A stretch of 64,000 nucleotides of DNA, taken from assembly GCA_951406725.2 (NCBI GenBank), contig OX597823.1, positions 89,652,001 through 89,716,000 of the forward strand, read 5' to 3'. The position numbers were made by a program, and so were the translations under genes. Origin of the DNA: Octopus vulgaris (Eukaryota). Below, piece by piece: positions 1 to 57,862 of this stretch (positions within the stretch are counted from its first letter, which is position 1; the number at the start of each line of letters is the position of its first letter). The notes below the pieces were generated by a model. It did no database searches. It was not told the DNA's origin and saw nothing but the letters and a program-made list of their open reading frames with translations.

Positions 1-1
1 A

Positions 2-1309
2 GCTAAAGATAAACCCCTCTACATAGCTTTTGTAGACTTGGAGAAAGCCTTTGACAGGGTTCCCCGTTCCCTTATCTGGTGGTCGATGCGGAAACTGGAG
101 ATTGAAGAATGGCTAATAAGGGCTGTACAGGCTCTATACAGAGAGGCTGTTAGCAAGGTTAGGATTGGCAACGAATATAGTGAAGAATTCCGAGTAGAAG
201 TAGGTGTGCACCAGGGCTCAGCCCTCAGTCCCCTTTTGTTCATCATAGTACTTCAAGCAATAACAGAGGAATTCAAAACGGGATGCCCCTGGGAGCTCCT
301 CTATGCCGATGACCTAGCTCTCATAGCAGAATCACTACCGGAACTAGAAGAGAAATTTCGGGTATGGAAGCAAGGGTTGGAATCAAAGGGCCTTAGAATA
401 AATGTAGCAAAGACCAAAGTATTAGTAAGCAGCAAGAGGTACTCAACACACATCCCCTCGGGTAGGTGGCCCTGCTCAACCTGTAGGAAAGGTACAGGTA
501 GAAACTCCATAAGATGCACCCAATGTAAGTTATGGACACATAAGAGGTGCAGCAACATTAAAGGGAAATTAACAGATAAGATAGCTTTCATGTGCGGCAG
601 ATGCACAGGGACAATAGACACAACAGACACTCAGAAAACAGATTCCATCACACTCCAGGGAGAGAAACTAGAAGTAGTTGATAGTTTCCGCTACCTGGGA
701 GACCAAGTTAGTAGCGGAGGTGGATGCACAGAGAGTATCACCACTAGAATACGAATAGCCTGGGCAAAGTTCAGAAAGCTCCTACCCCTACTGGCAACAA
801 AAGGCCTCTCCCTCAGAGCAAAAGGTAGATTATATGATGCATGTGTGCGAACTGCCATGCTTCACGGTAATGAAACATGGGCTGTGACTGCAGAAGACAT
901 GCGTAGACTTGAAAGAAATGAAGCTAGCATGATCCGCTGGATGTGTAGTGTCAGTGTGCACGCAAAACAGAGTGTAAGTATCCTGAGAGAAATGCTGGAT
1001 ATAAGAAGCATCAGATGTGGTGTGCAAGAGCGACGCTTGCGATGGTATGGTCATGTGCTGCGGATGAATGAAGAGAGATGTGTGAAGAAGTGTCACTCCC
1101 AAACAGTTGAAGGTATCAGGGGGAGAGGTAGACCCAGGAAGACATGGGATGAGGTGGTCAAGCATGACCTCAGAGCATTGGGCCTCACTGAGGCAATGGC
1201 GAAGGACCGAGATCTCTGGAGATATGCTGTGACTACAAAGACCCGGGCTGCTTTCTGCAGCAATTCCACATACCCCCTACCCATTCTAAGTACCCCCTAC
1301 CCATTCTAA
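2..1309 (+). CDS. Reverse transcriptase ORF (3' part) of an RTE-clade non-LTR retrotransposon; runs off the 5' window edge
   Basis: Frame is open from position 2 (AKDKPLYIAFVDLEKAFDRVP). RT motifs DLEKAFD, GVHQGSALSPLLF, LYADD, GLRINVAKTK and FRYLG are present, then RTE-type C-terminal motifs RRLRWYGHVLRM and GRGRPRKTW. No stop or frameshift. Confidence 0.95.
   Translation, partial: AKDKPLYIAFVDLEKAFDRVPRSLIWWSMRKLEIEEWLIRAVQALYREAVSKVRIGNEYSEEFRVEVGVHQGSALSPLLFIIVLQAITEEFKTGCPWELLYADDLALIAESLPELEEKFRVWKQGLESKGLRINVAKTKVLVSSKRYSTHIPSGRWPCSTCRKGTGRNSIRCTQCKLWTHKRCSNIKGKLTDKIAFMCGRCTGTIDTTDTQKTDSITLQGEKLEVVDSFRYLGDQVSSGGGCTESITTRIRIAWAKFRKLLPLLATKGLSLRAKGRLYDACVRTAMLHGNETWAVTAEDMRRLERNEASMIRWMCSVSVHAKQSVSILREMLDIRSIRCGVQERRLRWYGHVLRMNEERCVKKCHSQTVEGIRGRGRPRKTWDEVVKHDLRALGLTEAMAKDRDLWRYAVTTKTRAAFCSNSTYPLPILSTPYPF
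473..604 (+). other. PHD-type (C4HC3) zinc finger coded in frame within the RT ORF
   Basis: CSTC-x10-CTQC-x4(KLWT)-H-x2-C-x14-CGRC matches the PHD spacing, with the W-x-H motif and an aromatic residue before the last Cys pair. Confidence 0.85.
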
Positions 1310-1370
1310 GTACCCCGGATCCCCAAAGTACCCTGGATCCCCAAAATACCCCAATCCCCAAAGTACCCCG
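1271..1370 (+). repeat. Short tandem repeats at the ORF end / 3'UTR start of the LINE
   Basis: TACCCCCTACCCATTCTAAG x2 (1271-1310), then degenerate GGATCCCCAAAGTACCC units. Confidence 0.9.
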
Positions 1371-2308
1371 GACCTCGTTGCCCCCGTGCCGCTGACACGT
1401 TAAAATGCTCGAATCCGATCGTGACGATGCCGGACCCTCCGGCCCCTGTGCAGGTGGCACGTAAAAAGCACCCAATCCACTCACGGAGTGGTTGGCGTTA
1501 GGAAGGGCATCCAGCCGTAGAAACTCTGCCAGATTCAGACTGGAGCCTGGAGCGGCCCCTGGCTTCCCAGACCCGGTCAAACCGTCCAACCCGTGCTAGC
1601 GCGGAAAGCGGACGTTAAACGATGATGATGATGATGATGATATACATATACATACACACACACACACACGTATACACATTACATGTATGCACACGCAATG
1701 GATTTCTTCCTGTTTTTGATCTGCCACATTCACTCTAAGTAACAAAGTATTGGCCAACTTGTGGCTAAAAGTAAAAACTGAACCTCTCACCACTTGGTTC
1801 CACCACAAACCTCTTCACCATACAACCATGTCTGCAATTACAGTAGAGTAGCTATTTTGCTGAGAAATGCTAATAGCTTTAGTAAACACGTTAATAGTCT
1901 CAGTAAACATGTTAAAAGCTTCTGTAAATATACATAAGACAGTTTCACTCTTGCTGTGCATGCCCCCTTAAGGTTTGGGATTTCCGTGTAAAAGAATGAT
2001 TGCACAGACTAAGAAAATTTTTGTTGTTTCCAAAAGAATTAGGCTATCAATTATTATAATAAAGTGATTTATAATCTGAATAATACAAATATTTATTTAT
2101 TTGCTACAGGGCAAATGATTTCAACTCTGTAATTAATTTGCAACAAAATTCATCTGATTTAATCATGTCTGCAGACATATTTACAATACGAAGATTGGAT
2201 TGAATGGTTAAGAAGATTTCACAACAGGTGATAAGATGATGAGTATGAATTAAAGCTGTAGTCTCCTGCTAGCATGGTGCTTATCTTTTATTTGGTCGTG
2301 TTATAGTC

Positions 2309-14879: not shown

Positions 14880-16000
14880 TTCTAGAATAAGGACAGGCTG
14901 GGCAAAGTTTAGAGAGTTTCTACTGTTAGCAACTAAGGGACTCAGTGAAAGTCAGCTTGCATGATACTTGTGTATGTACAGCTATGTTACATAGCAGTGA
15001 CACACGGACTTTGACAACAGAGGATTTAAGAAGGCTTGAAAGAAATGAAGCTGGCATGCTCCGCTGGGTGGGTGGCGAGATGGCAGATTCGTTAGCATGC
15101 TGAGCGAAATGCGTAGCCGTATTTCGTCTGCTGTTATGTTCCGAGTTCAAATTCAGCTGAGGTCAACTTTGCCTTTCATCCTTTCGGTGTCGATAAATTA
15201 AGTACCAGTTGCACAATGGGGTCGATGTAATCGACTTAATCCGTTTGTCTGTCCTTATTTGTCCCCTCTGTGTGTAGCCCCTTGTGGGTAGTAAAGAAAT
15301 AGGTATTTGGTCTGCCGTTACGTTCTGAGTTCAAATTCCGCCGAGGTCGACTTTGCCTTTCATCCTTTCGGGGTCGATAAATTAAGTACCAGTTATGCAC
15401 TGGGGTCGATATAATCGACTTAATCCATATGTTTGTCCCCTCTGTGTTTAGCCCCTTGTGGGTAGTAAAGAAATAAATATCAGTGTGCATGCACGACAGA
15501 GTGTAGATATGATTTCAGAGGAAAACTAAGTATTAGAAGCATCAGATATTGTGTGCAAGATAGAAGACTGCGCTGGTTTGGTCATGTGATGCCTATGGAT
15601 GAGGACAACTGCGTAAAAAAGTGCAGGGCTCTTGTTGTGGAGGGTACCCGTGGAAGGGGTAGATTTAGGAAGACGTAGAATGAAGTAGTGAGAAAGGATA
15701 TTCAGATGCTAGGCCTCACTGAGAAAATGACGAAACCAGGAGATGTGGCGATTTGCTGTACTTTATAGGAGATGTTAAGCTAAGTATTGTTGTCTTCTAC
15801 ATATACAGGCTTGTCCTTTCAGGTGTCGGTGCTGCATAAATACACCTGTACTGGCAGCACGTAAAAAGCACCCAGCACATTGTTAAGTGGTTGGTGTTAG
15901 GAAGGTTATCCAGCCGTAGAAACCATGCCATAACAGACAATTGGAGTTTGGACAGCTCCATGTCAAACCGTCAAATCCATGCCAGCATGGAAAGCGGTAA
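14880..16000 (+). mobile_element. Older degenerate RTE 3' fragment interrupted by a SINE
   Basis: Homologous to ~750-1620 (AGGCTTGAAAGAAATGAAGCT...CGCTGG | ATCAGTGTGCA...); the homology is split exactly by 15071-15475. Confidence 0.9.
15071..15475 (+). mobile_element. SINE family A, dimeric copy
   Basis: tRNA-like head GGTGGCGAGATGGCAG...GAGTTCAAATTC, core GCCTTTCATCCTTTCGGGGTCGATAAATTAAGTACCAG, tail CCCCTTGTGGGTAGTAAAGAAATA; the body is repeated twice. The core resembles, from memory, the Meta/MESC SINE domain. Confidence 0.9.
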
Positions 16001-22002: not shown

Positions 22003-22754
22003 CTGCGCTGGTATGGTCATGTGGAAGAATGGATGAGGACAGCTGTGTGAAAAAGTGCCACACCCTAGCGGTTGAGGGAACCTGTGGAAGAGGTAGACCC
22101 AGGAAGACCTGGGATAAAGTGGTGAAGCACGACCTTCGAACTTTAGGCCTCACCAAGGAAATGACTAGTGACCGAGACCTTTGGAAATATGCCATGCATG
22201 AGAAGACCCAGCAAGCCAAATGTAACCATAATCTGATGGCCTATGCAAGGGGCGTAACCAGCCCACTTATGTGTACCTTTTCCTTCTTTGGACACTAAAA
22301 CTCTGCTTGCGAAGACCTGTTGAGACAAGTGAAATCAATCAAAATCAAATTCGATGACTGGTGTCCATGCTAGCAGGGTGCAAAGAGCACCATACGAGCG
22401 TGATCATTGACAGAGTGGCTAACTGGCTTCTGTGCCAGTTGCATGTAAAAGGGCACCATTTGAGTGTAATCGTTACCAGCGTCGCCTTACTGGTACCTGT
22501 GCTGGTGGCATGTGTAAAAAGATTCGAGCGAGGTCGTTGCCAGTACCGCCTGACTGGGCCCCATGCCGGTGGCACGTAAAAAGCACCCACTACACTCTCG
22601 GAGTGATTGGCATTAGGAAGGGCATCCAGCTGTAGAAATTCTGCCAAATCAAGATTGGAGCCTGGTGCAGCAATCTGGTTCGCCAGCCCTCAGTCAAAAT
22701 CGTCCAACCCATGCTTGCATGGAAAGCAGACGTTAAACAATGATGATGATGATG

Positions 22755-24455: not shown

Positions 24456-25020
24456 CATCATCATCATCATTTATCATTTAGCGTCCGCTTTCCATGCTAG
24501 CATGGGTTGGACGGTTCAACTGGGGTCAGTGAAGCTGGGAGGCTTCATCAGGCCCAGTCAGATCTGGCAGTGTTTCTACGGCTGGATGCCCTTCCTAACG
24601 CCAACCACTCCGTGAGTGTAGTGGGTGCTTTTTACGTGCCACTCGCACAGGTGCCAGACAGAGCTGGCAAACGGCCACGAACGGATGGTGCTTTTACGTG
24701 TCACCGGCACGGGGGCCAGGTAAGGCTGGCAACGGACACGAACGGATGGTGCTTTTACGTGCCACCGACACAGGGGCCAGACAGAGCTGGCAAACGGCCA
24801 CGAACGGATGGTGCTTTTACGTGTCACCGGCACGGGGGCCAGGCAGGGCTGGCAACGGACACGAACGGATGGTTCGCTTAACCACAGCTGCAATTCCCAC
24901 TGATGTTGATCGACCTCAATTTTGGTTCTGCTTTCTGATATATGATTTGGTTTGATTTTGATTGTTCTCACTGGTCTTGCCGGGTCTTCTCGCGCACAGC
25001 ATACTTCCATAGGTCTCGGT
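24456..25020 (-). mobile_element. 5'-truncated RTE copy with ABAB tandem expansion in the 3'UTR
   Basis: (CAT)n tail at 24456; ORF end (RDLWKYAVREKTRQ) at ~24970-25020; four ~61-bp units at 24624-24870. Confidence 0.92.
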
Positions 25021-42904: not shown

Positions 42905-43437
42905 AAGCATTACCTTATTTGGAAACAGGTAACTGTTGACAACAAGAAGGGCATCTGAGCATGGAAAATCTGACTCAATACATTCTGTCCAAGTAAGCAT
43001 GGAAAATTGAGCGTTGAGAAGACCCGGCAGGACAAGTGAGACCATAACCTGCGGCCTTTACCTGGGATGTAGCCAGTCCACTTATGCATACCTTTTCTCC
43101 TTGGGACACAAAACTCTGCTTGCAAAGACCTGTTGAAGCAAGCGAAATCGATCAAAAAATGAATGGAAATTGTAGTTGTGATACCTGTGCCGGTGGTACG
43201 TAAAAAGATCCATCCGATTGTGGCTGTTGCCAGCGCTGCCTCGACTGGCCTCCGTGGCACATAAAAAGCACCCACTACACTCACGAAGTGGTTGGCGTTA
43301 GGAAGGGCATCCAGCTGTAGAAACACTGCCAGATCACACTGGAGCCTGGTGCAGCCTCCTGGCTTCCCAGACCCTGGTCGAACTGTCCAGCCCAAGCTAG
43401 CATGGAAAACGGATGTTAAATGATGATTATGATGATA
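42905..43437 (+). mobile_element. Two abutting RTE 3' ends in the last GOLGA1 intron
   Basis: An old copy ends CATGGAAAATTGAGCGTT (~43015) and is joined directly to a younger copy from GAGAAGACCCGGCAG to a (GAT)n tail. Confidence 0.88.
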
Positions 43438-57011: not shown

Positions 57012-57614
57012 TTAAAAGAAAGACTATTATGTTAGGATGTTAGTCTTTCATCAGAAGACAGAGAAATAATGGGGAGCGGGGAGAAAAAAGCCGGTGAGAA
57101 AGAAAAAAAAAGCTGAGGAGTTGGAAGTCAGGTGGGAATGTGGTTCTGGGTAGGTGAGGGAGTTAGGCAGAGGAGAAATGAGTGTGTATGTACAAGTATA
57201 GGAGTGTATCTGTATTCAGAGAGGAGCATGTAGGGATGGGTGAGTGTATGTATGTAAAAGTGAATAAAATGTGGAAGTGTAGTGGTGTAGATTAGTGTGT
57301 GTGTGTGTGTGTACACATGTGTAATTGTTAGATGTTTGTGAAGTAGTGGGAATTGAGTGTGAAGCAAAAGGGAATGTAAGTGGAATGTGTAGAGGGATAG
57401 AAGTGTGTGAGACATTATACCATGGGAATAAGGAATGGGCATAAGAAGCTGAATGATAAAAAAGATGTCAGTTCAGGGAGAGAAGAGAAAAATGAATTAC
57501 AATAGAGAACACTGGGGAAAAGTGAGAGAGGAAAAAGGGACTTAAAAATTACACAACATTGATGGAAAGCCCAGGGAGGTTGGAAGAAACGTCCTAAGGA
57601 TGGTGAGAGACTAT

Positions 57615-57862
57615 TATCATCATCGTTTAACGTCCGCTTTCCATGCTAGCATGGATTGGATGGTTTGATCGGGATCTGGGAAGCCAGGAGGCTGCATCAG
57701 GCTCCAGTCTGATCTGGCAATGTTTCTACAGCTGGATGCTCTTCCTAACGCCAACCACTCCAAGAGTGTGGTGGGTGCTTTTTATATGCCAGTAGCACAG
57801 GAGTCAGGGGAGGCTGGCAACCGCAACGATCGGTTGGTGCTTTTTACGTGCCACGTGCACAG
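57615..57862 (-). mobile_element. RTE 3'UTR copy
   Basis: (CAT)n CGTTTAACGTCCGCTTTCCATGCTAGCATGG...GGTGCTTTTT. Confidence 0.9.

Follow-up and report, generated by a model that had tools for sequence, protein, structure and literature searches.

A Predicted PHD Finger between Reverse Transcriptase Motifs 6 and 7 in a Young RTE Retrotransposon Family of Octopus vulgaris

Introduction

How LINEs that are not site-specific engage chromatin is an open question, and at the locus described here a domain of the chromatin-reader type appears to sit inside the catalytic domain itself. The window, i.e., the whole stretch of 64,000 nucleotides analysed (Octopus vulgaris, contig OX597823.1), begins within a LINE reverse transcriptase (RT) gene, for which the original prediction, made from the letters alone, had proposed a complete PHD zinc finger inserted into the RT of a young RTE element. 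Is the insert a genuine folded domain, how far does it extend beyond this copy, and what might it do for the element?

The PHD fingers of CR1/L2 elements (in ORF1 or at the N-terminus of an ORF), the chromodomains of chromoviruses and the MBD of CopiaMBD are also retrotransposon-borne domains of the chromatin-reader type; for these domains an effect on integration is proposed or shown (PMC4120745, PMC6673714). They occupy ORF1 or the end of an ORF, or neighbour an integrase, whereas the PHD finger of the window element lies inside the catalytic RT. The accessible part of PMC4120745 calls the structure of ORF2 highly constrained and, as of 2014, names no functional study of LINE PHD fingers, and that of PMC5786205 does not mention PHD. 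No description of a PHD finger inside a LINE RT was found in the accessible full-text literature; most subscription journals, Repbase and Dfam lie outside it, and an earlier note may well exist in any of them. In automatic annotation, many of the proteins discussed below already bear PF00078 and PF00628 together.

Results

The Window Copy and Its Family

The features of the window copy are listed in Table 1, where the numbering of RT motifs 5–7 follows the original prediction and is anchored by an alignment to R2Bm. The frame, described in the original prediction as undamaged, is indeed open over all its 435 codons and runs through the 5′ edge of the window; the copy as a whole begins 183 bp upstream of the window, directly after a (TA)n tract, and has neither an endonuclease nor a start codon. 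The family is young, its scored copies being at least 99% identical; the window copy is a 5′-truncated, dead-on-arrival member of it and not itself active.

Table 1. Coordinates of the features of the LINE copy in the window.
Feature	Position	Strand	Remarks
3′ part of 5′-truncated RTE LINE copy	1..1641	+	98.6% identity to full-length copy L041 over 1,660 columns
Open frame, 435 aa (RT palm, PHD insert, motif 7, thumb, C-terminal region)	2..1309	+	
YADD catalytic motif (RT motif 5)	302..313	+	A-D-D invariant in 70 alignment rows
RT motif 6 (GLRINVAKTKVL)	389..424	+	End aligns to R2Bm 666–668, just before the 6a loop (672–677)
Variable linker into finger	425..466	+	dN/dS 0.20–0.66
Predicted Pygopus-like C4HC3 PHD finger, basic surface	467..604	+	Ligands 473–604; dN/dS 0.11–0.18
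Cage positions W156, T165 (V in most relatives), S169, W178	467–469, 494–496, 506–508, 533–535	+	
Variable linker and β-hairpin back into RT	605..667	+	dN/dS 0.36–0.76; strands at model residues 392–403
RT motif 7 (LEVVDSFRYLG)	668..700	+	F, Y, L, G invariant in 49/49 homologues
20- and 18-bp tandem repeats at ORF end	1271..1372	+	Copy number differs between copies and shifts the stop codon
(GAT)7 tail, 3′ end of element	1621..1641	+	
TA/CA microsatellite target flank	1642..1679	none	

Near-identical copies differ in C-terminal length by tens of residues at the repeats at the ORF end. Elsewhere in the window, short copies of the 3′ UTR end of the family, 70–87% identical, occur in about 17 places between 8511 and 60409 (for example, 24456–24716, 43254–43436 and 57613–57853), and older remnants of an RT thumb lie at 14881–15759 and 22004–22229; these may be truncated older relatives or a SINE using this tail.

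The best 40 of 3,070 candidate DNA matches were scored, and all 40 are 100% identical over 341 bp; of 45,783 candidate protein matches the best 150 were scored, none of which falls below 99% identity over 230 aa, and 148 of these contain no stop. Since only the best candidates were scored, the counts indicate that many young copies exist and do not depict the age profile of the family. ORFs starting with ATG, 1,078–1,113 aa in length, were present in four of the 20 DNA matches (from the 40) that were extended. Full-length copies encode a single ORF with EN, RT and PHD only (Pfam EEP and RVT_1), with no C-terminal zinc finger and apparently no ORF1. The assignment to RTE is based on this architecture, a single ORF with an APE endonuclease and RT, together with a 3′ microsatellite tail ((GAT)3–13 in 34 of 35 copies, the remaining one being masked by N) and on the nearest hits; the trees comprise search hits and octopus elements, and named reference clades are absent from them. 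For the RTE sequence of O. bimaculoides, the label RTE8BF presumably points to an amphioxus relative in Repbase.

The region upstream of the ORFs of L041 and L045 consists of tandem repeats. In L045 (5922–8501, minus-strand element) a 349-bp unit, repeated at least 7.4 times with 98% similarity between the repeats, forms an array, after which come shorter repeats; tandem arrays at the 5′ side are also found in L033, L047, L048 and L050, and several loci end before the true 5′ end of the element. We take the 349-bp array of full-length copies to resemble the repeated promoter monomers of some LINEs. An apparent 5′ end common to all copies proved to be an artefact of using the truncated window copy as the reference, and other copies extend further. 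The genome also contains further PHD-bearing subfamilies (L055–L063) with open ORFs of 1,034–1,062 aa and differing, repeat-rich 3′ UTRs. The PHD insert of the element is old and shared, and the family itself is young.

RTE-clade LINEs such as the octopus element RTE-2_OV (accessible text of PMC9115989) and the PHD-less fish proteins P0070 and P0210 likewise combine a single ORF, containing an APE endonuclease and RT, with a microsatellite tail. The window family is like them in having an ORF of about 1,080–1,110 aa, a (GAT)n tail overlapping the target and frequent 5′ truncation, and differs in the 63-aa PHD insert between motifs 6 and 7. It was also considered that the window element might be RTE-2_OV with a mislabelled zinc finger, which was rejected: none of four RTE-2_OV primers (PMC9115989) had a match among 87 loci, and in the copies recognised by one of the primers the loop measures 28 aa and the C-terminus carries a C2H2 finger.

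The Insert Is Predicted to Fold as a PHD Finger

The first cysteine codon starts at position 473 and the last one occupies 602–604, so the C4HC3 finger announced in the original prediction at 473..604 coincides exactly with the span of its ligand codons; the eight putative ligands (C158, C161, C172, C175, H180, C183, C198 and C201) have the spacing of a PHD finger (PF00628). Pfam searches with the frame found RVT_1 at residues 4–143 (75 bits) and PHD at 158–201, the latter scoring 22.3 bits in the whole 435-aa frame, below the cut-off of 24, and 28.1 bits (E 2e-6) on the isolated 73 aa. The stretch that starts at the "KT" of motif 6 and runs to the "F.YLG" of motif 7 measures 82–96 aa (median 90) in PHD carriers and 22–28 aa in PHD-less RTEs, which gives a net insert of about 63 aa and agrees with both the insert of some 60 aa and the normally short loop of the original prediction. 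All eight ligands are kept in 187 of 198 distinct homologous inserts.

The predicted model of the isolated finger (pLDDT 82.7) has the PHD fold with a two-stranded central sheet. The Foldseek matches listed for it are all PHD-finger protein entries (probability 0.69–1.0, TM about 0.5–0.7), none of those listed having an E-value of 0.001 or better. In a 605-aa RT model (pLDDT 91.7) the finger blocks reach 85–92, and the strands are intact on either side. The Pfam scan, the ligand conservation and the predicted fold, each of which had been proposed as a check, consequently uphold the domain assignment, and the alignments and models alike support the view that the RT of this young RTE family contains a genuine, folded PHD finger.

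The Finger Hangs from the Loop That Forms 6a in R2

The predicted RT core superposes on R2 and L1 RTs (Z 21–26), the best fold match being R2 (Z 25.9 and 24.1). By alignment, motif 6 of the window element ends at R2Bm residue 666, or at 666–668 when the profile is included; in the family profile, R2Bm 668 corresponds to position 719, and the match to the Pygo PHD finger begins at 728–730. The finger consequently hangs from the same loop as 6a, which in R2Bm, R2Tg and R2Pm is also an insertion between RT motifs 6 and 7. According to the accessible text of PMC10499050, the R2Bm 6a loop (672–677) recognises an upstream target motif, and its deletion blocks nicking; 6a of two vertebrate R2s likewise wedges into upstream DNA (accessible part of PMC11601368). 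Since the R2 loop wedges into upstream target DNA at this place, the finger, by analogy, would face the same DNA, although the two linkers are long and variable and it may therefore not face the DNA in the way of the short R2 loop. The elements differ considerably: R2 6a, a short loop that contacts DNA in a sequence-specific manner, belongs to a site-specific element of the RLE type and is described as unique to R2 in the accessible text of PMC10499050, whereas the window element carries a whole zinc-finger domain on two linkers and is a non-site-specific APE element.

The Insert Marks a Large RTE Lineage and Appears to Be under Selection

Homologue searches and HMMER yielded 312 stored proteins; by motif pattern, 202 of them have both motifs and a long insert and two have a short insert, 108 being dropped as fragments or for lack of a pattern match, and, as the set was gathered with PHD-bearing queries, the share of RTEs carrying the finger is not deducible from it. 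The nearest named homologues of the window frame are Octopus proteins. The named carriers are Octopus vulgaris, O. bimaculoides and the catfish Neoarius graeffei, together with a gene model catalogued as belonging to the nematode Acanthocheilonema viteae, and most carriers are metagenome contigs of 3–4 kb. Among the Atlas clusters named PHD and RT, represented by very few records, Cnidaria and Mollusca are the commonest phyla; the Atlas neighbours of the finger itself are small PHD and Pygo-type clusters, and the finger may stem from a host Pygo or from the PHD of another transposon. The PHD-in-RT architecture is thus not peculiar to the window element and marks a large RTE lineage.

Several full PHD-RTE proteins (P0285, P0385–P0387, P0222) are filed in bacterial bins on contigs of 4–5 kb, under Candidatus Thiodiazotropha from a clam and a Terriglobia bacterium; they most likely represent host or other animal DNA. 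The LINE ORF is also annotated inside host genes (P0012, P0001, P0051), namely, in catfish slc22a21 isoforms and in octopus models fused to other domains, which are probably annotation artefacts and possibly cases of exonisation.

The dN/dS ratio is 0.11–0.18 for the finger, 0.20–0.76 for the linkers, 0.06–0.08 for the RT core and 0.05–0.12 for EN and thumb; these are rough values, obtained from non-independent comparisons of the family with five sister-subfamily copies of the same genome, with 34–74% divergence at synonymous sites. They support purifying selection on the finger, as far as sequence comparison goes. In both trees built without the insert, a single gain or loss of the insert suffices: the PHD split has an SH-aLRT of 98 in a quick tree with five PHD-less rows, and in a second tree, in which the PHD-less rows number 12 and include chimeric gene models, it has a bootstrap of 55 and occurs in 48% of bootstrap trees. 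These topologies are consistent with a single origin of the insert.

These data also bear on the notion that the insert is merely a neutral passenger, or a product of chance matching or chimeric assembly, to which the sub-threshold Pfam score of the full frame might point. One genomic copy (L052, 3716–4621) has indeed lost the region by an in-frame deletion covering the whole finger, but motif 6 is removed with it, and that copy is accordingly dead. The finger is present in all 150 scored copies; the scored genomic matches are many and identical or nearly so, which speaks against chance or an assembly error, and, with the ligands as conserved as reported above and the low dN/dS, such an origin is extremely improbable.

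The Pygopus-Type Pocket Is Kept, and the Acidic Contacts Are Largely Lost

Among solved structures in the PDB, the Pygo PHD finger gives the strongest hit with the family profile (E 1e-7), followed by Alfin-like, PHF2, PHF13 and TAF3. The K4me2 cage of Pygo consists of W366, Y341, D352, V350 and A356, and mutation of E360 abolishes binding (accessible text of PMC2726290). Four of the five cage positions are kept in the 187 full fingers: the W366 position is W in 183, the Y341 position is aromatic or His (W/Y/F/H) in 172, the V350 position is V in 173 and T in 13 (V/T in 186), and the A356 position is S in 172 and A in 13 (S/A in 185). At the V350 position the window family has T and the sister subfamilies have V. 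D352 falls in a two-residue deletion of the finger. The E360 position is E in just six of the 187, and the position of PHF13 E248 in nine. All 187 fingers are positively charged (median +7, range +1 to +12), with K/R frequent at C1-3 (150), C2+2 (140), H+1 (148) and H+2 (167); hand counts for the aligned stretch give −6 for Pygo1 and +4 for PHF13, an H3K4me reader that is thus also basic in this stretch.

The finger therefore shares with Pygopus, as with PHF13, TAF3 and PHF2, the C4HC3 spacing, and retains the cage positions Y341, V350, A356 and W366, but D352 is deleted, E360 is replaced by non-acidic residues, the charge is positive instead of negative, loop 2 is shorter and the BCL9-binding segment is absent from the alignment. 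A (semi-)aromatic cage with a pocket-dividing Trp, as expected for H3K4me2/3 readers, is present; the acidic residues or negative groove for H3 A1/R2 are missing. The features of an H3K4me0 reader of the BHC80/AIRE type are missing too, the C1-3 position being basic in most fingers and the cage Trp being present. Judging from sequence conservation, the pocket looks kept and the H3-specific acids lost, a combination more in keeping with a grip on DNA or the nucleosome, supplemented by a weak methyl-lysine contact, than with a stand-alone H3K4me3 reader.

A canonical H3K4me2/3 reader, which would steer new insertions to active, H3K4-methylated chromatin, is nevertheless suggested by the four conserved cage positions, by the pocket-dividing Trp and by the identity of the best solved matches, Pygo, PHF2, PHF13 and TAF3 all being H3K4me readers. 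There are precedents as well, since captured retrotransposon chromodomains and MBD affect, or are linked to, the place of insertion (accessible part of PMC6673714). The lost acidic contacts and the strongly positive charge count against this explanation, typical H3-binding sites being mainly acidic (accessible text of PMC10124903); RAG2, however, reads H3K4me3 without an acidic R2 pocket (accessible text of PMC3241642), and the missing acids therefore lower the odds of H3 binding and do not exclude it. Together with the insertion data given below, we regard a canonical reader as unlikely.

A hydrophobic pocket conserved without H3-specific acids would also suit a host protein that is not a histone, or a methylated peptide different from H3K4, with nucleic acid contact being secondary; PHD fingers with atypical partners are known, and the rear face of Pygo binds BCL9 (PMC2726290, PMC3241642, PMC10124903, all in their accessible parts). 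Binding of nucleic acid accounts more simply for the conserved basic ring, and the similarity of the finger across distant hosts agrees with a ligand that is universal, for example DNA or H3. Such a partner is therefore less probable than the canonical reader, and the roles that may be imagined for it, such as recruitment of a repair or chromatin factor or evasion of silencing, are no more probable.

A PHD-Less RTE of the Same Genome Shares the (TA)n Preference

In 27 of the 34 copies whose tail is readable, a TA repeat follows the 3′ end (8 or more matches in 10, a score reached by 2.0% of window positions), and TA tracts also precede most of the 5′ truncation points that were mapped. As a control, a PHD-less RTE of the same genome was used, to which 13 of the 18 control loci belong as one family (L070–L072, L076–L083, L086 and L087). 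The family is fairly young; its copies are about 90–98% identical, bear an (CAAAGTGAT)n tail, which likewise ends in GAT, and land in (TA)n; the end of its ORF also has no zinc finger. TA follows all eight copies with a recognisable tail, and most of the other five enter TA/AT-rich sequence. Microsatellite targeting is thus common to distant RTEs in one genome. The proposal that the finger causes the (TA)n preference was rejected, because the PHD-less RTE has the same bias and the bias consequently needs no PHD finger; this fits the view, set out in the accessible text of PMC6007223, that RTE tails and endonucleases set the insertion site.

The suggestion of the original prediction that the finger steers insertion accordingly receives no backing from the sole bias measured, which also tells against a canonical H3K4 reader. 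Targeting of promoters by CpG content fared no better: the observed/expected CpG ratio of the 3′ flanks is 0.40 (21 copies), as compared with 0.44 for the window and 0.64 for the 13 PHD-less copies, values that constitute a crude proxy on survivors of selection and, with control flanks at fixed coordinates, a weak test. This lack of CpG enrichment stands, with the same reservation, against steering to CpG-rich sites and against the canonical H3K4 reader.

The PHD-less RTE has spread recently into the same sites, which means that a finger is not needed for RTE mobility. This touches on a further explanation, in which the finger would bind the 3′ UTR of the element's own RNA and replace the missing ORF1 and C-terminal zinc finger. 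The strongly basic character of the finger would suit such a module, as would the reduction of full-length copies to one ORF with just EN, RT and PHD and the occurrence of other LINE PHD fingers in ORF1 proteins (accessible part of PMC4120745). However, the equivalent loop touches DNA and not RNA in three R2 structures (accessible text of PMC10499050 and PMC11601368), sister subfamilies have widely different 3′ UTRs and yet an almost unvarying finger, and the PHD-less RTE is mobile in the same genome with an ORF end that has no zinc finger either. An RNA-binding role is thus rather improbable, and no likelier than the non-histone partner.

Discussion

The PHD-in-RT architecture is real, selected and widespread and, apparently, undescribed in searchable papers. 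As for its function, we tentatively prefer, with a confidence that comes near to balance and stays below it, a target-side anchor, in which the finger would grip DNA beside the nick and probably a methylated H3 tail. The predicted fold, the position in the RT, purifying selection, the cage positions and the basic charge point in this direction, and from them we infer the binding itself. The basic surface would grip chromosomal DNA next to the nick, and the aromatic pocket would probably hold a methylated histone H3 tail. In this way the finger could keep a single-ORF protein, devoid of a C-terminal zinc finger and of ORF1, attached to nucleosomal DNA during the nicking of an AT-rich site by the endonuclease and the pairing of the (GAT)n tail with that site. 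It would be the endonuclease and the tail, and not the finger, that select (TA)n sites.

A stronger version, that a widespread animal LINE lineage has made the motif 6–7 loop a true histone reader, coupling TPRT to H3K4-methylated nucleosomes, seems doubtful, though less so than a reader that steers insertions. The existence of many intact, near-identical copies alongside a PHD-less RTE in the same genome makes the role of the finger directly testable.

The family demonstrates that the loop between motifs 6 and 7 of a non-LTR RT can accommodate an entire domain, predicted here to be folded, and this tolerance bears on the addition of targeting modules to retrotransposon-based gene-insertion tools. 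If the finger does read histones, this loop, considered together with R2 6a, would be a general docking port for targeting modules in non-LTR RTs.
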